A stretch of 12,508 nucleotides of DNA from Nitrospirota bacterium (GTDB taxonomy: Bacteria; Nitrospirota; UBA9217), in assembly GCA_029858565.1 (NCBI GenBank), contig JAOUEV010000081.1:1-12508 (forward strand), given 5' to 3'. Positions 3 to 12,422 of this stretch are shown here, in pieces. Each line of letters starts with the position of its first letter. The first letter of the stretch is position 1. The notes beneath the pieces are model-generated. The model did not search any database. It was not told the origin of the DNA and saw only the letters and a program-made list of their open reading frames with translations. Both the position numbers and the translations under genes were made by a program.

Positions 3-1055
3 GTGAACCGCTCGAAACAAGAGTGGCAGGAAACCTTCGACAGCATCACGGACATGATATCCATCCACGACAGGGACTATAACGTCATCAAGGCGAATAA
101 GGCGTTCTCGGCGAACCTGGGGAAAACCCCTCAGGAGGTCATCAACAGGAAATGTTATGAGCTCATGCATCACGGCGGGATCTCGGCGATCGCCGGTTGT
201 CCTCATGAGCGGACCATGCGGAATAAGGAGTTTGTCTCCGTGGAGTTGTTTGATGAAATCACCAAGAAGACCTTCTCCGTTTCAACCTATCCATATCTGT
301 CTCCGGATGGGGACCTTGTCGGTTCCATCCATATCGCACGGGACATCACGGAGGAAAAGGACCGGGAGATGCGGATGATCATGACTGAGCGGCTTGCCTC
401 GCTGGGCCAGATGGCTGCGGGCATCGCCCATGAGATCAACAATCCTCTTCAGTCGGTCGTAATCTGCTCGGAGATGCTTTTGATGAAGGTGGCGAAGGAC
501 AACTACGACCACGGACAGTTCGAGAAGTACCTCAAGACCATAGACGAGGAAGTGCAGCGCTGCAGGGACATCACGAGCAATATGCTCTCGTTCTCCCGCC
601 AGACTACCCAGAGCCGGTCCGACATTGACGTGCATCTTTTGATGGATAAGGCCGTCGATCTCGTCGGCTACCAAGGGAGGCTGAAGAATGTGACTGTAAT
701 AAAGAAATACGGAGAGAGGTTCCTGCTCAGCGGGAACGAAGGCGAGCTGCGGCAGGTATTTCTCGTGCTCATCATAAACGCCCTGGACGCCATGGAGAAC
801 AAAGGCGTGATCACGCTCGAGACCGGAGCGGGGGCGGGCAATGCATGGTTCCGAGTGACGGATACCGGCCCGGGAATCGCGCCGGAAAATATTCAGAGGA
901 TATTCAATCCCTTCTTTTCCACGAAGACCGAGAAAGGAGGCACCGGACTCGGTCTTTCCATAGCTCATAGGATCATTGCCAATCACCGCGGCTCTCTCAC
1001 CGCGGTCTCTGAACAGGGCCATGGCGCGGCATTCACGGTAACCCTTCCTCGGTAG
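3..1055 (+). CDS. PAS-domain sensor histidine kinase (NtrB-like HisKA + HATPase_c), probably 5'-truncated by the window edge
   Basis: PAS-like segment (WQETFDSITDMISIHDRDYNVIKANKAF...GSIHIARDITEEK), H-box AHEINNPL preceded by ERLASLGQMAAG, N-box LRQVFLVLIINALDAM, G1 DTGPGI, F-box IFNPFFSTK, G2 GTGLGL. The frame is open from the window edge. Confidence 0.95.
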   Translation: MNRSKQEWQETFDSITDMISIHDRDYNVIKANKAFSANLGKTPQEVINRKCYELMHHGGISAIAGCPHERTMRNKEFVSVELFDEITKKTFSVSTYPYLSPDGDLVGSIHIARDITEEKDREMRMIMTERLASLGQMAAGIAHEINNPLQSVVICSEMLLMKVAKDNYDHGQFEKYLKTIDEEVQRCRDITSNMLSFSRQTTQSRSDIDVHLLMDKAVDLVGYQGRLKNVTVIKKYGERFLLSGNEGELRQVFLVLIINALDAMENKGVITLETGAGAGNAWFRVTDTGPGIAPENIQRIFNPFFSTKTEKGGTGLGLSIAHRIIANHRGSLTAVSEQGHGAAFTVTLPR

Positions 1056-1069
1056 AAATGCCCTTTCCG

Positions 1070-1104
1070 CTGACAAGTTGTCAGCCTGCCTGACAACCTG
1101 TACC
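1070..1104. promoter_or_regulatory. Tandem palindromic operator/upstream activator sites (GACA-N3-TGTC), putative binding sites of a sigma54 enhancer-binding protein
   Basis: CTGACAA-G-TTGTCAG (1070-1084) is a perfect 7-bp-arm inverted repeat. A second, degenerate copy CTGACAACCTGTA starts at 1090, so the centres (1077, 1097) are 20 bp apart. The same arrangement recurs at 2351-2384. Confidence 0.75.
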
Positions 1105-1157
1105 GCACTACCGCTTCCCCATTACACTGAAACCCCATGAAAACAATGCACTCCGAA

Positions 1158-1173
1158 TGGCACGACACTTGCT
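1158..1173 (+). promoter_or_regulatory. Sigma54 (RpoN) -24/-12 promoter of the HD-GYP gene
   Basis: TGGCACGACACTTGCT is an exact match to the consensus TGGCACG-N4-TTGC(A/T). It is intergenic and ends 70 nt upstream of the ATG at 1244. Confidence 0.88.
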
Positions 1174-1243
1174 GTAGAGGGCAATAGTGAGGCCGGGCTG
1201 TTGGTCCCGCGTGCTCATTGCGTTCGGAAGGACAACCATCCCT

Positions 1244-2302
1244 ATGATCTCCAAGATACTGCTCGTAGACGATGAAGTGCGGATCCTTGATGTGATGACG
1301 CAGATGCTCATGGAGTTGGGCCTCGATGTCAAGGCGACAGCGCATCCGGACGAGGCGGTCCGGCTGGTGGCTGAGGAAAAGTTTCATATAGCGTTCGTTG
1401 ACAATTTCCTCGGGCCCGTGGAAGGGATCGAGCTTATCGAGCAGATGGGGGCGATGGATCGTGAGCTCCAGTTCGTGATCATGACCGGAAATCCCGACAT
1501 AGAAACTGCGATCTGTGCCCTCAAAAAGGGAGTGGCCGATTTCCTCCGCAAGCCCTTTCGCATCGAGGAGTTGCTGGTCAGCATCGATCATGTGAGACGG
1601 AGGCTGGAGCTGGAACAGCAGCGGAAGGACCTTTTGTCCGGGCTGGAACTGACGGTCCAGGAGAAGACCTCTGAGCTGAAGCAGACCTATCTGTCCGTGC
1701 TGATCGCGTTGTCGCGGACCGTGGAAAAGAAGGACCTGGGGACCTACGGCCACAGCATGCGGGTCAGTGATATATCCTCGAGGATCGCGCGACAAATCGG
1801 CCTTTCGACGAGCGAAGTGGAGAACGTGCGAGCCGCTTCCCTTCTGCATGATATCGGCAAGATCGGGATCAGCGATTCGATCCTGGCGAAAAAGGGGCCG
1901 CTTGATGCGGAGGAGGCGGATATCATCAGAAGCCATCCTGAGAAGGGCGTGGAGATCCTGCAGCCGTTGAAGCAATTTGAGCTGTTGCTGCCGGCCATCC
2001 TGCATCATCACGAACGCTTCGACGGGTCCGGGTATCCGCGGGGGCTCTCCGGTGACGCCATCCCGCTGTCGGCGCGGATCATCTCCGTGGCCGACACCTA
2101 CGACGCGATCCAGTCGGACCGGCCCTACCGTTTGGCGGCTTCGCATGAGAATGCAGTGCGCGAGGTCTGTGCATGGTCGGGGAAGCAGTTCGATCCGGGA
2201 GTCGTGTCCGCCTTTACCCGGGTGCTGCAGGAAGGGAATAGCGAAGCAGATATCCTGAAAAGCGCGCAACGGCTGTGTGCGCAGAAAAGGACCGGTCAAT
2301 GA
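1244..2302 (+). CDS. Response regulator with HD-GYP output domain (RpfG-like cyclic di-GMP phosphodiesterase)
   Basis: REC domain (ILLVDDE, phosphoacceptor-position D in AFVD, IMTG, FLRKPF), coiled-coil linker, then TYGHSMRV, LLHDIGKIGI, HHHERFDGSGYP, VADTYDA, DRPYR, GKQFDP. Start moved from the ORF-track 1187 to ATG 1244, where the REC fold begins, after GGAAGGA at 1226-1232. Confidence 0.93.
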   Translation: MISKILLVDDEVRILDVMTQMLMELGLDVKATAHPDEAVRLVAEEKFHIAFVDNFLGPVEGIELIEQMGAMDRELQFVIMTGNPDIETAICALKKGVADFLRKPFRIEELLVSIDHVRRRLELEQQRKDLLSGLELTVQEKTSELKQTYLSVLIALSRTVEKKDLGTYGHSMRVSDISSRIARQIGLSTSEVENVRAASLLHDIGKIGISDSILAKKGPLDAEEADIIRSHPEKGVEILQPLKQFELLLPAILHHHERFDGSGYPRGLSGDAIPLSARIISVADTYDAIQSDRPYRLAASHENAVREVCAWSGKQFDPGVVSAFTRVLQEGNSEADILKSAQRLCAQKRTGQ

Positions 2303-2350
2303 CGACGGCTCATTCAACGCTGCTGGAAATAGCTGTTTCAGGGACTTCTT

Positions 2351-2384
2351 CTGACAACTTGTCCTGATTAAAGACAGACTGTCA
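2351..2384. promoter_or_regulatory. Second tandem pair of GACA-N3-TGTC palindromes (putative upstream activator sites)
   Basis: CTGACAACTTGTCC (2351-2364) and AGACAGACTGTCA (2372-2384) have centres at 2358 and 2378, 20 bp apart, as in the 1070-1104 pair. Confidence 0.75.
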
Positions 2385-2438
2385 TTGCATTTGGACAGCC
2401 CGGATCGTCAAGTGGCTGAAATAAAGCTTGTTGTCATC

Positions 2439-2454
2439 TGGTATTGATCATGCA
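2439..2454 (+). promoter_or_regulatory. Sigma54 -24/-12 promoter of the binding protein-MCP-cheW unit
   Basis: TGGTATTGATCATGCA keeps TGG...TGCA with exact GG-N10-GC spacing. It starts 87 nt after the first TGACA, the same offset as in the first promoter. Confidence 0.72.
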
Positions 2455-2551: not shown

Positions 2552-3415
2552 ATGATTGGACGGATCGTAAAGGCAGGACTGGTCACACTGGTCGTTGTTG
2601 CGTCACTGGGATGGTCACGGCCGGAGACCGCGGCTGCTGAGATCAAGCTTGGACTGCTTCCCCGGCTGAGCGCGATGGAAATGACCGCCATGTTCACTCC
2701 GCTGGCGGAATACCTGAGCAAGGAAACAGGCGAAAAGGTCAGCTTGATTGTCCCGAAGGACTTCGACGCTTTTAAGGCGCTCGTCTCCTCCGGCCATGTT
2801 GATATGGGATTTGCCAATCCGCTCATCTATGTGCAGCTGAAAAAGGACGACCCGTCGCTCGATCCGCTCGGGTTGGCGTCGGAAAAATCGGGAACCAAGT
2901 TCCGGGGCATCATCATCATCCGGAAGGACTCGGGCATAGAAAAGGTGCAGGACCTGAAAGGGAAGAAGATCATATTCGTGGAGCAGGACTCCGCTGCGGG
3001 TCATATCTTCCAGATGCTGACCCTGAGCAAGGCCGGCCTTGACGTGAAGAACGATTTCACCAAGCTGCCCTTTGCCAAGAAGCATTCGAACGTCGCCATG
3101 GCGGTGTTCAACAAGGCGGCTGATGCCGGCGGCATTCGCGAGGATGACCTCGAAAAGATGAAAGATGTGGTGGACCTTGCGCAGATCAAAGTCGTTGCCT
3201 ACACGGACTATTATCCGAACTGGCCGCTGTTCAGCACGAAAAAGATGAGCAAGGCGAGCGCTGACAAAGTGAAGGCAGCGCTGCTGAAGCTCAAGCCGAA
3301 CAGCCCCGAGGCGAAGCAGGCAGCCGGTCCGGCCAAGATCACGGGATTTGCGCCGGTCGTTGACAAGGACTATGACCTGCTCCGTCAGGCGGCCAAGATC
3401 GCAGGCGCATATTAG
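2552..3415 (+). CDS. PhnD/PtxB-family (phosphate/phosphite/phosphonate-type) periplasmic substrate-binding protein, with no adjacent transporter genes
   Basis: SD AGGAGG at 2539-2544 before ATG 2552. Sec-type signal peptide ending ETAAA/EIK. Family hallmarks: [73 protein letters not shown]. Confidence 0.88.
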
Positions 3416-3563: not shown

Positions 3564-5291
3564 ATGAAGATCAATATTCGGGAGTGGTCAGTGACCAAAC
3601 AGTTTCTAGCCAGCATCATGCTGGTAATGCTGCTGGTGACAATTGCCATGGTGTGGATATTGAGCGCCAGCCAGCAAAGGGCATTGATGCGGCAGTTGGA
3701 GGAGAAAGGGAAGAACACGGCATCGTTCCTGGCGGCCATATCCGCCGAACCGATACTCTCCTATAATTTCGGATACCTGGAGAACTATGTAAAGGACATC
3801 TCGAACGATCGCGAGGTGGTGTCCGCGGTCGTGCTGGACAAGCAGGGCGCCCCGCTCACCCAGCATGGCAACGGCCAAAGCGGTGTGAAAAAAGTGATGG
3901 AATTCACCAGCCCGATCCTGCAGAACGGCGAACAAATCGGCATGGTGAAGCTCGGTTTCACCCGGCAGTATGTTGACGAGGCCATTCGGAGCGCCCAGGC
4001 AATCATTGTGGCGCTGTTTGTCGCAACCATGATCGTGCTTTCCGGCGTTGTGTACCTGCTGTTCCGGAAGATCATCCTCGCCCCGCTGGGAGCCGAGCCC
4101 GTTTTTGTCGCAGGTATTGCGAACCAGGTTGCTGAAGGCAATCTGAGCATCAGCCTGCAGACAGCTGCAGACGACCGGAGCAGCGTTCTCTTCTCCATGA
4201 AAAAGATGGTCGATAATCTGAAAGGGCATGCCGGTGTTGCGGAGCAGATCGCGGCGGGAGACCTGCGGGTCAATGCCACGGTGCTCGGCAGTCAGGATAT
4301 TCTGGGCAAGTCCCTGACCGCGATGATCGAAAAGCTGAGGTCTGTCGTAGCTGACGTGATGATCGCGTCGGACAATGTCGCTTCGGGCAGCCAGCAGATC
4401 TCGTCGAGCGCCTCGCAGCTCTCTGAAGGGACAACCAATCAGGCGGCATCCGCGGAAGAGGCATCATCGTCCGTGGAAGAGATGAATGCCACGATCCGGC
4501 AGAACGCTGATAATGCCGAGCAGACGGAAAAGATCGCCAAGAAGAGCTCCAATGACGCGATCGAAAGCGGTAAGGCCGTGGGAGAAGCTGTGGGCGCCAT
4601 GAAGAACATCGCTTCCCGGATCACGATCATCGAAGAGATCGCGCGTCAGACGAACCTGCTTGCATTGAACGCGGCCATCGAGGCTGCACGCGCGGGCGAG
4701 CACGGAAAAGGATTCGCCGTGGTCGCCGCGGAAGTGCGCAAGCTGGCGGAGCGGAGCCAGGTGGCTGCAGGAGAGATCAGTCACCTCTCGAACTCGAGCG
4801 TGGACGTTGCCGAGAGCGCCGGCGCGATGCTGGCGAAGCTGGTCCCGGACATCCAGAAGACCGCTGACCTGGTGCAGGAGATCAGCGCCGCGTCGAAGGA
4901 ACAGGCGGGCGGCGCCGACCAGATCAACAGCTCGATCCAGCAGCTGAACAGCGTGGTCCAGATGAACGCGGGGGCGGCGGAGGAGATGGCCTCAACGGCG
5001 GAGGAACTTTCCGCCCAGGCAGCGCATTTGCAGCGCTCTATCTCCTTCTTTACCGTGGAAGATGCGGAGGAAGAGGCGCCTCGATTGGCGGCAGCGCCTG
5101 TGAAGAAGATCCCCGCGCGTCCTGCAAAATTGCCGGCGCCGTTCCCTGACCGGAAACGGGAAAAGGTCCTGGTTGCGGCGGGAGCGAAGGTCAGTGGCGG
5201 CGTGGAAATCAATTTGGGTCCTGACGCCGGCGGCAACGGGACGCGTGAAAAAGGCAATGATTCCAGGGACCACGATTTCGAGAAATTCTGA
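3564..5291 (+). CDS. Methyl-accepting chemotaxis protein (2 TM, small periplasmic domain, tandem HAMP, C-terminal pentapeptide)
   Basis: Start at ATG 3564 after a G-rich SD (AGGGGGGG). TM1 [22 protein letters not shown]2 [21 protein letters not shown], two HAMP-like repeats ([11 protein letters not shown]; [11 protein letters not shown]), signalling tip [40 protein letters not shown], Pro/Ala/Lys-rich linker, terminal DFEKF. Confidence 0.96.
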
Positions 5292-5381: not shown

Positions 5382-5876
5382 ATGAGCATGGCAGAAGCGA
5401 CGGAGATGACGCAATACCTTACGTTCAGCCTGGGCGACGAGCTGTTCGCCCTGGATATTGCAAAGGTCCGCGAGGTCCTTGATTACACGACCGTCACCAG
5501 GGTCCCCCGCATGCCCGCATATATGCTGGGGGTGATCAACCTGCGGGGCACGGTCGTTCCGGTCGTTGACCTCCGGAGCAAGTTCGGCACTGATGTTAGG
5601 GGCAATTCGGTGAACACGTGCATCATCATCTCGGAGGTCCTGGTCGATGGAAAGATCACGGTGCTAGGCGCGCTGGCTGACTCGGTGCAGGAGGTGGTGG
5701 ACCTTGATCTCGAGAACATCGCGCCGGCTCCCCGCATCGGCTCGAGGCTTAATACGGATTTCATCAAGGGCATAGGCAGGCAGAATGACCGGTTCATTGT
5801 CATGCTCGACATTGACCGGGTTTTTTCAGCGGGAGATCTGGACACGGTTACGGACAGGCCGGGAGTGCCGGTATAA
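5382..5876 (+). CDS. cheW: Chemotaxis coupling protein CheW
   Basis: QYLTFSLGDELFALDIAKVREVL, TRVPRMPAYMLGVINLRGTVVPVVDLR, GALADSVQEVV, FIKGIG, LDIDRVFS. SD AGGAG at 5371-5375. Confidence 0.96.
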   Translation: MSMAEATEMTQYLTFSLGDELFALDIAKVREVLDYTTVTRVPRMPAYMLGVINLRGTVVPVVDLRSKFGTDVRGNSVNTCIIISEVLVDGKITVLGALADSVQEVVDLDLENIAPAPRIGSRLNTDFIKGIGRQNDRFIVMLDIDRVFSAGDLDTVTDRPGVPV

Positions 5877-6176: not shown

Positions 6177-6321
6177 TGCGGAACGATCTCGATCTTGCGC
6201 GAAAGCGCGTGACGAAAGATCCGCAGGGCGGGTCTCATGAGAGCCCATGAGGCGCTGTTCCTGCGGGAGCACTGCCTTTTCACTTGGTCAGCATTCTCTC
6301 AAGCGACTCTCGCTTCTCATG

Positions 6322-7482
6322 CTATTTTCGGTTCGCTCCCCGTGGTTTGAAGAGCGTGCGCACCCCGTGGAAGAGCAGGAACAGCGGCAAACGGATGAGC
6401 ACCCATCGCTGGAAGCGGACATAGTCGCTCTTTCCCAGGGCGATATCGACATATTGTTCCAGCGTCCCTTTGTGCGTGAAGAACAGGGTGAGGAAGAACC
6501 GGGGATAGCGATCCAGCAGCCGGGCCATGCGAAGGGCGATCCTCAAATCTTTGAGAAGCAGTTCTTCACACCGGTCTTCATACCAGGCCGTGCAAGTTCC
6601 CGGCTCATTGCCCTGTTCCGCGATCGCCTGCGCGGCAAGCGCTCCGGACAGCACGGCATTGCCCATGCCCTCGCCGTCAAAGGGGTCCGCGAACCCGGCC
6701 GCATCCCCTGCCAGCAGGACGCGCTGTCCGGTGATCTGTCGTTCAATCCCGCCCAGCGGTATGGTGTGGCCCCGTGTCCCGGTAAGGGTGATGTTCCGGG
6801 ACCGGGCGAACTCCGCCAGACACTGCTGCGCCCCGGAAAACTCCTCTGCCAGTCCCACAACCCCCACGGAATCATACTCCCGGTGCGGGAACACCCAGGC
6901 GTAGCCTTGCGGCGCTATTCCGAAATGCATCTCGAGCGTGTCGCCGCGCGTTCCGGCTGCAGCGGGCACGGAGGAGACCAGGGCAGCCAGGATCTCCGTC
7001 CGCGCAAAAGCGGAGCGCAGCGACCGTGCCGCGATGCTGTTCGCGCCGTCCGCGGCCACGACATAGCGGCTCCGGTAAACACCCTGCGCCGTCCTGACCT
7101 CAACGGTGTCCCTCCCATCGCTGACGCCGGTGGCCTGCTCGTCCTGATGGAAATCAGCGCCCTGCTCGATCGCCTTGTTTGCCAGAAACAGATCGAACCG
7201 TTCCCGGCTCACCATCGCGCAGATCCGCTGCCTTTTCCTGACCTCGACCCTCTCCGGTCCATAGTGGACACTGATGGCGAAACATTCCTGGTCAATGATC
7301 TCCGGGGGGAGAGGGAAACCGAGCCGGCTGATGGAGCGCTGCGACAGGGCGCCGCCGCAGGGCTTGGGCCGGGGAAAGGCAGCGCGGTCCAGCAGCAGGG
7401 TTCTCAGGCCGCGCCGTGCGCATTCCCCGGCGCAGGTGGAACCCGCTGGGCCGGCACCGATAACAATGACGTCGTAGACCAT
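6322..7482 (-). CDS. Geranylgeranyl reductase-family FAD-dependent oxidoreductase
   Basis: YDVIVIGAGPAGS dinucleotide-binding motif, FPRPKPCGG, RERFDLFL, VVAADGANS, GYAWVFP, LLAGDAAGFADPFDGEGM. SD GAGGG upstream of the ATG. Confidence 0.92.
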   Translation of the reverse strand: MVYDVIVIGAGPAGSTCAGECARRGLRTLLLDRAAFPRPKPCGGALSQRSISRLGFPLPPEIIDQECFAISVHYGPERVEVRKRQRICAMVSRERFDLFLANKAIEQGADFHQDEQATGVSDGRDTVEVRTAQGVYRSRYVVAADGANSIAARSLRSAFARTEILAALVSSVPAAAGTRGDTLEMHFGIAPQGYAWVFPHREYDSVGVVGLAEEFSGAQQCLAEFARSRNITLTGTRGHTIPLGGIERQITGQRVLLAGDAAGFADPFDGEGMGNAVLSGALAAQAIAEQGNEPGTCTAWYEDRCEELLLKDLRIALRMARLLDRYPRFFLTLFFTHKGTLEQYVDIALGKSDYVRFQRWVLIRLPLFLLFHGVRTLFKPRGANRK

Positions 7483-7618
7483 ATGGTTCCCTCAAGACGG
7501 TGAACGCCTGATTTGATCACACAGTCACCGAGGGCAGGACGGAAAGCTGTCCCCTGGTGATCCCAATTCCCCCTGTCCCAGCGTCTCCGCGGCAGCGGTC
7601 GTGATCATGCAGTCCCGC

Positions 7619-8203
7619 TCACCTCTTCCGTCCATGGAACAACTCGCTTCCCGCGCCGGGGTAGATCCTCCGCTCGCTCTTCGGGGTAGGTGTGGGAACG
7701 GGCGGCCATTTGACGGTCCGGGGTTCCGCGCCCTCCTTTGCCAGAGCGGTCGGCTCCCGGTCCGCCATGAGCGGGCTCTTCCTGATGTCCGTGCCCGGCA
7801 CGTAATAGCTGAACTCGATCGGGATGCCGTTGGGATCGTAGGCATAGATCGAATGGATGAATCCATGGTCGATGACCTCCGAGACCCAGACCCCCGCCGC
7901 ATGCAACCGGTCCTTTAATTCCCACAGCACATCGTCGCTCTCAACGCCGAAGGAAACATGATCAAAACAGAAGGGGCCGGACGCCGGGTGTCCATGCTCC
8001 TTTTCCTCCACCGGCCTGACATCGGGCCATTCAAAGAACGCGACCATGTCGTGGTCCGAGACCTGCAGGAAGTACTGGCGGTAGCCGGGCTTGCCAAGGC
8101 CTGCCACGAGCCGCATGCCCAGCAGGTCCCTCCAGAACAGGATCGTTTCGTCCATGTTCCCGGTTGCAAGTGCGAGGTGGTTCACGCCGCTGTATCTGAT
8201 CAT
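7619..8203 (-). CDS. VOC (glyoxalase/bleomycin-resistance/dioxygenase) family metalloprotein
   Basis: GVNHLAL...FWRDLLGMRL, VAFFE, FDHVSFGV, SIYAYDPNGIPIEF give the H/E/H/E metal-ligand pattern of paired beta-alpha-beta-beta-beta modules. SD-like AAGGGG upstream. Confidence 0.9.
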   Translation of the reverse strand: MIRYSGVNHLALATGNMDETILFWRDLLGMRLVAGLGKPGYRQYFLQVSDHDMVAFFEWPDVRPVEEKEHGHPASGPFCFDHVSFGVESDDVLWELKDRLHAAGVWVSEVIDHGFIHSIYAYDPNGIPIEFSYYVPGTDIRKSPLMADREPTALAKEGAEPRTVKWPPVPTPTPKSERRIYPGAGSELFHGRKR

Positions 8204-8384
8204 CGCAAAAGCCCCTTTTTTGGATGCCTGACCTGACTTTGAATCCTCAAGTCACAGGAAAGCGCAGAGTGACCTCAAGAAGTCCTGTTCTCAGGCTTGG
8301 TGACTCAATTGTACCGCAGGATGTCGGCAATTGCCATGAGCAGGAGCACATTATTGCACCTCCTGAGCCTCGGCACGGGCTTTT

Positions 8385-8718: not shown

Positions 8719-10596
8719 ATGATCATCAGAATGTCGAAGATCGAGATCGCGGGGCCCAAGGACCTTCTGCAGCAGGTCCTGTCCCTGCTGCGCGAACTCG
8801 GGCTGTTCCAGGTCGAGCCCGCTGCCATCGGGTTCATCGACAGCGCTGACGAGCAGCATGTACGCTCGTTCTCGCTCGACGAAAAGACGACGATCGAACG
8901 GCTTTACCTCGAAGACCTGCGGCTGAAGATCGACGATCTGGTCTCCCTCCTTCCTCATGCCGCTGTCCGTGAAAGTTATATCGACCCCCCGACGGTGATC
9001 GAGGCGCTGGCGCGCATGGTCGACCATCACACGGTCCAGGCCCGCGAACTGTCGGAGCGGCGCGACGCCCTGCAGAAAGAACGTGTCGAACTTGAACGGA
9101 ACGCAGTGTTCCTGAGCGCCGTCGCGTCACTGCTCCAGAGCGCCAAGGAGACGCCGAACCTCGAGTTCATCGGGCTCACGGTGCGCGACCCCGCGATGGT
9201 GGGCAATCTGCGCGAGGCGATCTCGCGCATCACCGACTGGAAATACGAGTTCCAGACCGGGACAGCGGGCGACGGCACGGTGGTGGGACTGATCACGGTC
9301 GAAAAAGCGATCGCTGACAAGGTCAAGCGGTCCCTTGCCGACGAGCAGGTGCCTGAGCTGACCTTTCCCGCGGCTTTCGGCAGCATGACATTCACCGAAA
9401 AGATCGCTTACGTGAACCAACGGAAGATCGAAGCCGCGGCGGAGATCGAAGGAGCGACCGCTGCGCAGGAGCGGTTCGCCCACCGGTGGCTTCCGCTCTA
9501 CCGGAGCGTCCGCGACTGGATCGACGGGCGGTTGAGCCTGCTGCGCACGACGGCATCGGCCTATGAGACGAAAATGTGCTTTTTCATCCACGGCTGGATG
9601 CCCTCCCGGGACCTGGAACGGATCCGGGGAAGCCTGCTCCGGTCCCTTGGGCCGCAGGTCGTGGTGGAGGAAAAGGAAATGCGCGAGCAGGACCTGGAGC
9701 ATGTTCCCATCGCGCTCAGGAACCCGGCCTATTTCCGGCCCTTTGAGCTCATGACGAGCCTGCTGCCGCTCCCTGCCTACAGGTCCTACGACCCCACACC
9801 GTTCATCGGCATTTTCTTTCCGATCTTTTTCGGCATCATCCTCGGCGACGCGGGCTACGGCCTGGTGCTGCTGCTCGGCGCCTGGTATCTGCGCAAGCGT
9901 TTCCGCGGGGACCAACGGATCCATGACGGCGGAACGATATTGATGATCTCCTCGGGCTACACGATCTTCTTCGGCGTGCTCTTCGGCGAGTTCTTCGGCG
10001 ACCTGCCGGAGCGGCTGTTCCATCTCCAGCCGCTCTGCGTGGAGCGGCGCACGGCGATCGTGCCCATGCTGATCTTCTCGCTTGCCATCGGTGCGGGCCA
10101 TGTGGTGCTCGGGCTGCTGCTCGGGGCAATGAACGCTTTTCAGCGGAACCTGAAGCGGGAAGGGCTGTTCAAGGCGCTCAGCATCGTCGTTATCTTTCTC
10201 ATCGCGGCGGTCCTGGCGTCGTTCTTCGGCGTCTTCCCGCTGGTGCTGAAGCGTCCGGCGGTGCTTCTCATCCTGTTCCTCACTCCGCTCCTGCTCTTTG
10301 CCGGCGGCATTCTGGCGCCGCTGGAGTTCCTGAAGAGCATCGGCAACATCATCTCCTACGTGCGCATCACGGCCATCGGGCTCACATCGGTGCTGCTCGC
10401 CTATGTAGCGAACCAGCTCGGGGGGCTCACAGGCGATGTCGTGCTCGGGGTGGTCGTCGCCGGGCTGATCCACGGCCTGAACATCGTGCTCGGCGTGTTC
10501 TCGCCAACGATCCACTCGCTCCGGCTCCATTACGTGGAGTTCTTCAGCAAGTTCGTGGAGCACGGGGGAAGGAAGTTCGAGCCGCTGAAAAAATAG
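8719..10596 (+). CDS. atpI: V/A-type ATP synthase subunit I (a)
   Basis: N-terminal MSKIEIAG, soluble domain ending IHGWMP, PIALRNP, YDPTPF...FFGIILGDAGYG, GEFFG, essential Arg in GNIISYVRITAIGL, and HSLRLHYVEFFSKF...GGRKFEPL. Confidence 0.97.
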   Translation: MIIRMSKIEIAGPKDLLQQVLSLLRELGLFQVEPAAIGFIDSADEQHVRSFSLDEKTTIERLYLEDLRLKIDDLVSLLPHAAVRESYIDPPTVIEALARMVDHHTVQARELSERRDALQKERVELERNAVFLSAVASLLQSAKETPNLEFIGLTVRDPAMVGNLREAISRITDWKYEFQTGTAGDGTVVGLITVEKAIADKVKRSLADEQVPELTFPAAFGSMTFTEKIAYVNQRKIEAAAEIEGATAAQERFAHRWLPLYRSVRDWIDGRLSLLRTTASAYETKMCFFIHGWMPSRDLERIRGSLLRSLGPQVVVEEKEMREQDLEHVPIALRNPAYFRPFELMTSLLPLPAYRSYDPTPFIGIFFPIFFGIILGDAGYGLVLLLGAWYLRKRFRGDQRIHDGGTILMISSGYTIFFGVLFGEFFGDLPERLFHLQPLCVERRTAIVPMLIFSLAIGAGHVVLGLLLGAMNAFQRNLKREGLFKALSIVVIFLIAAVLASFFGVFPLVLKRPAVLLILFLTPLLLFAGGILAPLEFLKSIGNIISYVRITAIGLTSVLLAYVANQLGGLTGDVVLGVVVAGLIHGLNIVLGVFSPTIHSLRLHYVEFFSKFVEHGGRKFEPLKK

Positions 10597-10613
10597 TGTC
10601 CAAGGAGGTCCCT

Positions 10614-10838
10614 ATGAATCTCGAAAAAGTACTGATAGCGTTTTGCGCGGCATTGGCGATCGGCATCCCGGCGATCGCAACGGCGTGGGCGCAGTCCCGG
10701 ATCGGGGCTGCCGGGGCAGGGACGCTGGCCGAGAAACCGGAACTGACCGGCACGGTCATCATCCTGGTCGCTATTCCCGAGACCATGGTGATTCTCGGCT
10801 TTGTGGTCGCCACGATGATCCTCTTCACGGTGAAATAG
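10614..10838 (+). CDS. atpK: V/A-type ATP synthase proteolipid subunit K (c), single hairpin, 74 aa
   Basis: Strong SD AAGGAGGT at 10602-10609 before ATG 10614. Two hydrophobic helices, AQSRIGAAGAG, loop AEKPE, and the ion-binding Glu in IPETMVILG. Confidence 0.95.
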   Translation: MNLEKVLIAFCAALAIGIPAIATAWAQSRIGAAGAGTLAEKPELTGTVIILVAIPETMVILGFVVATMILFTVK

Positions 10839-10839
10839 C

Positions 10840-11406
10840 ATGGGCTGCAGGGAGCTGATCGAGTCGCTGCGCCAGGCCGGTGATGGACGTGCGCGCGCGG
10901 CCAGGGCCGAGGCCGAGCAGGAGGCGGAGAGGATCAAGGCCGACGCCGCCGGCCGCATTGCCAGGGTCAGGGAGGCGAACGAGCGGAAGCGCGCCGATGG
11001 GGCAGCCCGTCACGAAGCCACGGTGCTGGCCGAAGCGAATGCCGAGGCGCGTCGGATCAGGATCAGGGCCGATCGCTTGCTCGCCGAACGGCTTCAAGCC
11101 GCCGCGCGGTCGGGCCTTTCTTCGCTCAGGAACGTGGGGTACGAAGGAGTGTTCCGGGGATTTGCCCGGGAGATGCCCCGGGTCCCCTGGAAGAAGGTGC
11201 AGGTGAATCCCGCTGACGAACCGCTCGCCCGGGAGATATTCCCTGACGCCGAGATCGTCACGGACAGTTCGATCACCGGCGGATTCGTCGCCCTGTCGGA
11301 AGGCGACCAGGTCAGGGTCGTGAACACCTTTGAAAAGCGCCTCGAGCGTCTCTGGGATGAAATACTCCCGGATATGATCAACGAGGTGCGGGAGATGTTC
11401 CGGTGA
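10840..11406 (+). CDS. atpE: V/A-type ATP synthase subunit E
   Basis: N-terminal coiled coil (MGCRELIESL...AEAEQEAERIKADA) and C-terminal VQVNPAD and ITGGFVA...VVNTFEKRL motifs. Located directly after subunit K. Confidence 0.9.
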   Translation: MGCRELIESLRQAGDGRARAARAEAEQEAERIKADAAGRIARVREANERKRADGAARHEATVLAEANAEARRIRIRADRLLAERLQAAARSGLSSLRNVGYEGVFRGFAREMPRVPWKKVQVNPADEPLAREIFPDAEIVTDSSITGGFVALSEGDQVRVVNTFEKRLERLWDEILPDMINEVREMFR

Positions 11407-12422
11407 GATCAATGGCAGACCGCCCAGCCATTGCCGGTGACCGGCAGCACGGCGGATTCCGTGGACTGCTGACGGACAGGGTCCGTTCGGGGTATCCGGC
11501 AGAGTATCTTCTCACGAGGCTGCGCGGAAGGCGCGCGAAGCTGGTCTCGAACTGGAAGACCCTTGTCTATGCTCCTGATCTTTCCGGGGGGCTCAGCGCG
11601 TTACGGTACCAGGGGTTCGTGCGTGAGCGGACCGTGGAGGGAATGTGGCGGTCGCTGCTGCTGGAGCACCAGTGGGTGTTCCGCCAGATGGACGAAAGAC
11701 TGCGCGCGGTTTTCGCGCCCTATTTCGTGCACGCCGAACTGCGGACGCTGTTCATCAGCCTTCGGTCGCTGGCGGGCGAGAACGACCGGAAGGTCCCGGA
11801 AGTGCTCAGCCACAGCCTGCTGTCCGGACGGGTAAAGGCGGCGTTGAATGCAGAAGATGCGGCAGCGGCGCTTCATCGGACCGAGACGATCCTGTGCGGG
11901 ATCTCCCCGCGTTTTGCCGGGATCGCCGCGCTGTACGAACGTGAAGGCGCCCGTGCCGGAGAGCAGGAACTGACGACCAGGCTGTTCGCCGCGATCCTGG
12001 AGGCCCCGCTCCATCCCGTGATCAGGCAGTTCTTTGAACGGCTTGTGGACGCGAGGAATGTCCTGTCCTTGTACGCGCTGCTTCGCGCGGGAAGAGATGA
12101 ACCCGCCGTGTTCATGCGGGGAGGGGCGATCTCTCTTGATCGGCTGCGCGGTATCCTGGAGAAGGGGGATATTTTCTCGGTCCTGCCGGTCGTCAAACAG
12201 GCGTCAGGCGTGGTCATTCGTGACCCGGAGGCGGTGCAGGTCGAGGTCGCTCTTTATCGGGGCGTGACGAGGTTCGCGAAGGCCGAAGGACGTGATCCGC
12301 TGGGGGCCGGCTTGATCCTGGACTATCTCTGGCGGTGCTCGCTCGAGGTCACGAACCTGGGCCTGTTGTACGCGGGAAAGGACCTGGACCGGGAAATGAT
12401 ACTGGCCGAGCTGGTGCATTGA
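11403..12422 (+). CDS. atpC: V/A-type ATP synthase subunit C (d / AC39 family)
   Basis: YPAEYLLTRLRGRRAKL N-terminal motif, RLVDARNV, and C-terminal DPLG...ILDYLW...EVTNL. Size (~339 aa) and position between E and F fit. Start is GTG 11403 (GTGA overlap with the E stop) or ATG 11412. Confidence 0.85.
   Translation: MRSMADRPAIAGDRQHGGFRGLLTDRVRSGYPAEYLLTRLRGRRAKLVSNWKTLVYAPDLSGGLSALRYQGFVRERTVEGMWRSLLLEHQWVFRQMDERLRAVFAPYFVHAELRTLFISLRSLAGENDRKVPEVLSHSLLSGRVKAALNAEDAAAALHRTETILCGISPRFAGIAALYEREGARAGEQELTTRLFAAILEAPLHPVIRQFFERLVDARNVLSLYALLRAGRDEPAVFMRGGAISLDRLRGILEKGDIFSVLPVVKQASGVVIRDPEAVQVEVALYRGVTRFAKAEGRDPLGAGLILDYLWRCSLEVTNLGLLYAGKDLDREMILAELVH

Follow-up and report, generated by a model that had tools for sequence, protein, structure and literature searches.

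Two predicted sigma-54 promoters with tandem-dyad enhancers link an HD-GYP gene and a chemoreceptor unit in a Nitrospirota bacterium

Architecture of the locus

This work concerned two intergenic regions of a Nitrospirota bacterium, in each of which a pair of short palindromes (dyads) is followed by a candidate -24/-12 promoter of the sigma-54 type. Both regions lie in the window, i.e., the whole stretch of DNA analysed, which is the entire contig C59 (12,508 bases) of a genome of 3.92 Mb (3,918,454 bases in 144 contigs, 57% G+C). The first region follows a sensor histidine kinase gene, of which the window holds the 3' 350 codons (positions 3-1055, plus strand; PAS, HisKA and HATPase_c in Pfam), and precedes a gene encoding a receiver (Response_reg) fused to an HD-GYP domain (HD_5; 1244-2302, plus strand), hereafter REC-HD-GYP. 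The second region lies between the REC-HD-GYP gene and a gene for a secreted solute-binding protein of the PhnD family (Pfam Phosphonate-bd; 2552-3415, plus strand). The latter is the first gene of a unit that continues on the same strand with a methyl-accepting chemotaxis protein (MCP; 3564-5291, Pfam MCPsignal) and ends, as far as recognisable genes are concerned, with a CheW coupling protein (5382-5876, Pfam CheW).

The dyads are of the 13-mer type TGACA-N3-TGTCA, with ten specified bases, and were scored with a position weight matrix (PWM) built from 16 sites of other genomes only, the genome under study being excluded. In enhancer 1, the promoter-distal dyad (1071-1083, centre 1077, about -107) is a perfect TGACA-N3-TGTCA (PWM score 19.0), and the promoter-proximal dyad (1091-1103, centre 1097, about -87) has TGTAC as its right half (15.8). 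In enhancer 2, the distal dyad (2352-2364, centre 2358), which ends in TGTCC, is the top-scoring site of the genome (21.8), and the proximal dyad (2372-2384, centre 2378) begins with AGACA (3.9 and 7.2 on the two strands). An earlier note on this DNA had described two GACA-N3-TGTC palindromes per region with centres 20 bp apart; all the centres were recovered at that spacing, and three of the four dyads fit the formula, the one at 1091 reading TGTA. The same note had placed the first TGACA 87 nt before the TGG of a downstream GG-N10-GC element in both regions, and this was found to be exact (1071 to 1158 and 2352 to 2439), both boxes carrying the leading T at 1158 and 2439.

The first of these boxes, P1 (1158-1173, plus strand), has its GG at 1159-1160 and its GC at 1171-1172, with a predicted transcription start near 1184. 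It matches the consensus TGGCAC-N5-TTGCW at 11 of 11 positions, as do only seven sites on both strands of the genome, and alignment indicated that it is kept in orthologous loci. The second, P2 (2439-2454, plus strand), reads TGGTAT-N5-ATGCA, with GG at 2440-2441, GC at 2452-2453 and a predicted start near 2465. The exact spacing of 10 nt between GG and GC that characterises sigma-54 promoters is thus present in both, and the genome encodes the sigma factor itself (rpoN, a 511-residue frame on contig C82; Sigma54_DBD, 209.8 bits). The second region has another GG-N10-GC element, at 2413-2428, which showed no conservation in the orthologous promoter. Between positions 1000 and 2700, searches for sigma-70-like promoters, intrinsic terminators and Rfam families found none. 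Since no terminator was detected between the two units, transcripts from P1 may also extend into the unit served by P2.

Rarity of the tandem dyads in the genome

When up to two of the ten specified bases may differ, the genome holds 813 sites, of which 4 are perfect, 57 carry one mismatch and 752 carry two. Six pairs of such sites lie 17-24 bp apart, and only two at 20 bp, both of them in the window, while simple arithmetic from the site counts gives about 0.17 expected pairs at any one fixed spacing. The tandem dyads are beyond chance, as the only two 20-bp pairs of the genome are precisely those of the window. A composite scan was also performed, in which a PWM site had to have a partner 19-22 bp away and, at 55-80 nt past the proximal site, a sigma-54-like box. 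A genome scan for tandem dyads at a set distance from -24/-12 boxes had been proposed in the earlier note, and it indeed recovered both window promoters; the one further place returned, C142:45122, lies beside a paralogous regulator (see below). Strong single dyads on contigs C100, C115, C5, C9, C62 and C41 lack both a partner at 19-22 bp and a sigma-54 box at 55-80 nt. Judging from their surroundings, they seem to be parts of coding sequences, and they were treated as chance occurrences. Contig C100 also carries a dyad pair at 23-bp spacing.

These counts bear on the possibility that the dyads are no enhancers at all, and are instead operators of a factor unrelated to sigma-54, weak hairpins ending the upstream genes, or chance. 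Single perfect sites do occur at about the chance rate (4 versus about 3.7 expected for ten fixed bases in 3.9 Mb), and both dyad pairs lie within 50 nt past the stop codons of the upstream genes. The pairs, however, are unique in the genome, their distance of 66-68 nt to the sigma-54 boxes is kept across five genera, and metagenomes yielded dyads of this kind in company with strong sigma-54 boxes (both described below). Moreover, a hairpin formed by a dyad would have a 5-bp stem, a loop of 3 nt and no run of T, and no terminator was detected. We therefore regard this explanation as very improbable.

An NtrC-type activator and its kinase, probably directly upstream

The regulator that most likely serves both promoters was found on another contig, C57. 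The end of C57 and the start of the window share an overlap of 158 nt that contains 2 mismatches. Its final 126 nt are exact and unique in the genome, and the reading frame of the kinase runs on continuously across it. C57 would thus directly precede the window, and the gene order would read activator, kinase, enhancer 1 with P1, REC-HD-GYP, enhancer 2 with P2, binding protein, MCP and CheW. The activator is a 442-residue NtrC-type response regulator, composed of a receiver, an AAA+ domain with GAFTGA and Walker A motifs, and a Fis-type helix-turn-helix (HTH). This combination, together with the Sigma54_activat match of the AAA+ domain, places it among the group I bacterial enhancer-binding proteins, and its orthologues show the corresponding domains Response_reg, Sigma54_activat, AAA_lid_14 and HTH_8. 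The kinase gene starts 12 nt after the activator gene, and its N-terminal part, on C57, encodes a periplasmic PhnD-like domain (Pfam Phosphonate-bd).

The activator aligned over its full length to the NCBIfam models AtoC, NtrC and GlrR, and it scored below the curated equivalog cut-offs of AtoC (410 versus 714 bits), NtrC (403 versus 559), GlrR (331 versus 763) and ZraR (323 versus 760). That it binds the dyads and serves both promoters is the most likely reading of its position and of its co-occurrence with the motif. The recognition-helix region is alike in the orthologues, in a paralogue on contig C142 and in a different activator of genome G019, and it differs in a clade of activators 64-65% identical and in unrelated activators; this likeness is only suggestive of a link between activator and motif.

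The genes for the C142 paralogue, about 60% identical, and for its kinase themselves precede a GGACA-N3-TGTCC dyad, whose degenerate partner lies at a distance of 19 bp (C142:45100-47100). An A/T-rich stretch comes next, and then a 10/11 sigma-54 box 67 nt past the proximal site. Downstream of it lie a small Cys-rich open reading frame (ORF) and a REC-HD-GYP paralogue (46127-47089) that is 53% identical to the window protein.

Conservation in related genomes

The class to which the organism belongs comprises 64 species genomes of one family. The exact 14-base tandem pattern was present in four of them (the genome under study, G000, and G043, G048 and G019), versus none of the 64 for a reversed-pattern control. 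When the C57 activator was used as query, 22 of the 64 genomes gave matches at E <=1e-120, and in seven other genomes, from four other genera, the protein was 75-80% identical (G051, G046, G050, G043, G048, G071 and G064, the copy in G064 matching over residues 3-317 only). Eighteen loci were compared, namely those of the seven close orthologues, nine informative paralogue loci and two in which the contig ended too early (L066 and L070).

In all seven close-orthologue loci, the kinase gene is followed within about 270 nt by tandem dyads, and these by a sigma-54 box matching at 9 to 11 of 11 positions. Together they contributed eight promoters which, with the two of the window, made a set of ten promoters from eight genomes. 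The two dyads are 20 bp apart in four of them (twice in the window, and in G043 and G048) and 21 bp apart in the other six. The distal dyad lies 86-89 nt before the TGG and the proximal dyad 66-68 nt before it in 10/10 promoters; because the dyad spacing is either 20 or 21 bp, what stays constant is how far the promoter lies from the proximal dyad. In the alignment of the ten promoters, non-coding conservation is concentrated in the dyads, in an A/T-rich patch just before the -24 element, and in the -24 and -12 boxes. ACA and TGT do not vary among the 20 sites; of the bases next to them, the flanking G is retained in 17 sites and the flanking C in 16, and ACA is followed by A in 18. The consensus of the dyad is thus TGACAA-N2-TGTCC, with ACA-N3-TGT as its core rather than a strict GACA-N3-TGTC.

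The genes past the promoter are conserved as well. A REC-HD-GYP orthologue comes first in 6/7 loci, usually followed by cheA; the exception is G048, where a stand-alone receiver protein of 162 residues follows the promoter. The genome under study has no close orthologue of this cheA, the top match reaching 51% identity. In G051, a second enhancer and promoter stand ahead of genes for a binding protein, an MCP and CheW, as in the window. The earlier note had proposed that motif and spacing be looked for in orthologous loci, and they are indeed conserved before orthologous genes in the seven other genomes.

By their number and position, the dyads resemble an upstream activating sequence (UAS): they are repeated, their centres near -107 and -87 fall within the range of about 80-150 bp upstream expected of such sites, and they are kept with the promoter. 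They also co-occur with the activator, the motif being found in 7/7 loci with an activator at least 75% identical versus 0/9 paralogue loci (55-65%). This contrast is important with respect to the alternative in which promoters and enhancers are real, but are bound, alone or additionally, by another of the roughly 25 sigma-54 activators of the genome. The C142 paralogue is one candidate, with its related dyad, its sigma-54 box at 67 nt, its paralogous REC-HD-GYP gene and its similar recognition helix, and two perfect dyads adjoin the different activator of G019. The association of the motif with all seven close orthologues and with none of the nine paralogue loci from other genomes, and the synteny that puts the C57 activator directly upstream of the window, nevertheless make this alternative improbable.

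Several paralogue loci (L071, L075, L068 and L076, in G019, G043, G061 and G014) carry other repeated dyads at the same relative position. These dyads, of a G+C-rich CGGGC type or of an ATCGGTA type, stand before sigma-54 boxes with an A/T-rich patch ahead of the -24 element, and these loci form a family of related cassettes with diverged enhancers.

Motif-first scan of metagenomes

The motif was also searched for independently of the activator, in metagenomes, with a pattern of 22 bases made of two dyad cores, gaps of 9-12 and 52-70 nt and, of the promoter, only the five positions TGGCA. The 41 stretches recovered included 12 with a full sigma-54 score of at least 9, and in 11 of these 12 the spacing was 21 and the distance to the TGG 65-68 nt. 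A REC-HD-GYP gene lies just downstream in seven of the 12 strong stretches; six of these seven have a kinase C-terminus upstream and four show a CheA match further on, while one (L179) also holds the activator, at 68% identity. The cassette was found in 0/29 weak stretches, which, with their scattered gaps, look like background, the scan carrying no estimate of chance matches.

Some of the recovered stretches differ from the usual cassette. L165, L166 and L167, from AT-rich contigs, have tandem dyads at 21-bp spacing and a sigma-54 box (9-10/11) 65 nt downstream. In L167, no ORF of at least 50 residues follows the promoter on that strand, and the sequence that follows is rich in hairpins. The product of these three stretches may be a sigma-54-dependent small RNA; none of them reached the gathering score of an Rfam family. 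L193 has a kinase C-terminus, tandem dyads and an 11/11 sigma-54 box, and then a stretch of 30 residues in which identity to the activator's C-terminal HTH reaches 80%. This stretch lies at the start of a frame of 1004 codons with weak kinase similarity, and the whole looks like a rearranged cassette. A search of a genome-contig collection with the activator yielded no orthologues, all the matches being generic activators with identities up to 44%.

The binding unit and its relation to known systems

In the favoured interpretation, the 13-bp dyad is the binding unit, and the spacing of 20-21 bp, or two helical turns, would set two dimers on one face of the DNA. It is favoured because N3 is invariant, because the spacer between dyads varies by 1 bp, and because the activator failed the GlrR cut-off. 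The last point refers to an alternative according to which the true unit is the inner inverted repeat TGTC-N9/10-GACA that spans both dyads, as in GlrR/QseF, the outer half-sites being auxiliary. According to PMC3045617, GlrR/QseF, with its kinase GlrK, acts at glmY through TGTC-N10-GACA sites, in three copies, more than about 80 bp upstream, and the target is a small RNA. The inner halves of the six promoters with 21-bp spacing, all in related genomes, read TGTC/TGTT-N10-GACA/ACA and equal the GlrR consensus given there, and the C57 protein aligns to the GlrR model over its full length. The inner spacer varies, however (N9 in four promoters and N10 in six), whereas N3 within the 13-mer is the same in 20/20 sites found by synteny; outer and inner half-sites are equally conserved, and the protein reached 331 bits against the 763 of the equivalog cut-off. 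An inner-repeat unit is accordingly unlikely, though we would give it slightly more credit than binding by another activator.

Other likenesses to GlrR concern the type of protein (an NtrC-type two-component activator), the TGTC and GACA half-sites, a small regulon, and sites resembling those of integration host factor (IHF) between enhancer and promoter. The 13-bp unit has the opposite arrangement, GACA-N3-TGTC, and occurs in two copies rather than three. Regarding IHF, sites with at most one mismatch to WATCARNNNNTTR were present in 7/10 spacers, while 500 shuffles gave 0.85 on average and never more than 3, and a himA-like gene is present in the genome. The spacer of P1 in the window has no IHF-like site and that of P2 only a weak match on the minus strand, so that assistance by IHF is not claimed for the window promoters and is considered possible for relatives.

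At glnAp2, a -24/-12 promoter, NtrC (NRI) acts from tandem dyads placed about 80-110 bp upstream and on a single face of the helix. The system described here is similar in having a receiver-AAA+-HTH activator with a GAFTGA loop beside its kinase, and tandem dyads before a -24/-12 promoter, and the best solved relatives of the C57 activator are the NtrC-family structures 4l4u and 1ny5. It differs in that the C57 protein is below both NtrC equivalog cut-offs (336 versus 620 bits for the second), in the dyad, which has a different sequence and a shorter span of 13 bp with 8 bp between the half-site centres, and in the targets, which are signalling and chemotaxis genes rather than nitrogen assimilation genes. 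AtoC is the best-scoring NCBIfam model, to which residues 7-442 align full-length with the same domain order; unlike AtoC, the C57 protein has no acetoacetate genes nearby, in addition to its score below the cut-off.

In the main text of PMC4641369, the predicted sigma-54 regulons of Desulfovibrio vulgaris likewise combine an activator co-localised with a conserved promoter and a palindromic upstream site; that main text, figures and supplements aside, contains no GACA or TGTC strings and no HD-GYP target. Literature searches for the motif strings, in which RegPrecise and CollecTF were not covered, returned no enhancer-binding protein and only an unrelated preprint on a cyanobacterial repressor. 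The motif could thus not be assigned to a characterised regulator, as the earlier note had also stated.

Proposed mechanism and weight of the evidence

Two sigma-54 promoters, each with a tandem-dyad UAS and served most likely by the C57 activator, are in our opinion the probable explanation of the locus. That one sigma-54 activator drives both the HD-GYP gene and the binding protein/MCP/cheW unit, as the earlier note had proposed, is supported at the level of sequence by the presence of rpoN, by the occurrence of both promoters in G051, and by a motif that travels with an activator/kinase pair encoded directly upstream here. From a mechanistic point of view, the most likely scheme is a ligand-activated two-component switch that turns on both units via sigma-54. 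The kinase would sense a periplasmic ligand through its PhnD-like domain and phosphorylate the activator. Two activator dimers, bound to the two dyads on one face of the DNA, would nucleate the active oligomer, which DNA looping would bring to the sigma-54 holoenzyme; in some relatives, an IHF-like bend may assist in this. P1 would then provide the REC-HD-GYP phosphodiesterase, and P2 the binding protein, the chemoreceptor and CheW. This corresponds to the general mechanism of enhancer-binding response regulators (see the review PMC7175178). The mechanism is the standard enhancer/sigma-54 scheme, and what is specific here is the motif, the pairing of regulator and motif, and the targets.

Several observations weigh against this interpretation. 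P2 is a weak match (8/11), and sites scoring at least 8/11 number 3923 in the genome, about one per 2 kb per strand; it is convincing only because of its position, which is the same 67 nt from the proximal dyad as in P1, and it aligns with the 9/11 box of the corresponding promoter of G051. The dyad at 2372 is the weakest of the four, with the low PWM scores given above. The junction between C57 and the window is deduced from an overlap with two mismatches rather than from an unbroken assembly. The genome encodes about 25 full-length sigma-54 activators, none of them inside the window, and cross-talk with the C142 paralogue at its related GGACA-N3-TGTCC site is possible. The cassette is patchy, being found in 8/64 genomes of five genera, and three genomes of the same genus (94, 86 and 97% complete) have no activator above 58% identity and no motif. 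No dyad pair was found upstream of homologues of the binding protein in 18 other loci, which are mostly paralogues in other contexts, some with sigma-70-like or other sigma-54 boxes. Lastly, the motif is not unique to one orthologous group, as the activator of G019 is a different one.

That G019 activator, an NtrC-type protein of 471 residues encoded downstream of cheB, and an MCP with a CZB domain flank two perfect TGACA-N3-TGTCA dyads spaced by 20 bp (locus L060, G019:C2, at about 9011-9043; also L054). The locus also has a perfect IHF consensus, and a TGGCAT-N5-TTGT box lies 78 nt past the proximal dyad, about one helical turn farther than in the window.

The sensors of the orthologous kinases differ, with a PhnD-like domain here, SBP_bac_3 in G046, dCache in G048 and G064, and GAF in G071; no sensor domain was recognised in the kinases of G051, G050 and G043. 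It is tempting, although tentative, to view the activator, the dyads, the sigma-54 promoter and REC-HD-GYP, usually with CheA, as a portable module with swappable sensors, which would make a chemosensory branch that degrades cyclic di-GMP (c-di-GMP) inducible. A second copy of the enhancer would then have recruited the binding protein-chemoreceptor-CheW operon, here and in G051. The binding protein predicted to be induced from P2 is 31% identical to the sensor domain of the upstream kinase, hence the idea that detection and chemotaxis share a ligand; if true, the cell would build a receptor for chemotaxis towards the ligand that it has just detected. The motif beside the different activator of G019 and in L165-L167 would, in turn, make tandem dyads a widely reused enhancer type.

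The locus is, as judged from its sequence and conservation, a real, conserved mini-regulon and an ordinary kind of bacterial gene switch. Through it, a so far uncharacterised NtrC-type two-component system from an uncultured lineage is connected with a defined motif and a two-operon regulon. It also offers a directly testable activator-motif pair, and it exemplifies sigma-54 control of both c-di-GMP turnover and the supply of chemoreceptors. Its value is that of annotation and regulon mapping, not that of a new principle.

Products of the two units and other features of the window

The HD and GYP motifs of the REC-HD-GYP protein are intact in the translation, and the protein, 71% identical to its G051 orthologue, is likely an RpfG-like c-di-GMP phosphodiesterase. 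The binding protein, 84% identical to its G051 orthologue, scored above the NCBIfam cut-off of TIGR01098 and below that of the PhnD equivalog, and its family includes binders of phosphonate, phosphite, selenate and tetrathionate. The start of the MCP was moved from 3348 to the ATG at 3564, on the basis of a G-rich ribosome-binding site and of N-terminal similarity to the G051 MCP, to which it is 58% identical. The order binding protein, MCP, CheW is the same in the window and in G051. A second set of MCP, binding protein (83% identical to that of the window) and CheW is present elsewhere in the genome (C51:7507-11133); there the binding-protein gene follows the MCP gene, and the dyad motif was not found.

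Beyond cheW, three open frames have no Pfam or NCBIfam match (6247-7503, plus strand; 7525-7902, minus strand; 7958-8236, plus strand), the first of which, of 418 codons, begins 370 nt past cheW. Part of a V-type ATPase operon occupies 8719-12422 on the plus strand, with subunit I, a short frame of 80 codons, and then the E and C/AC39 subunits.

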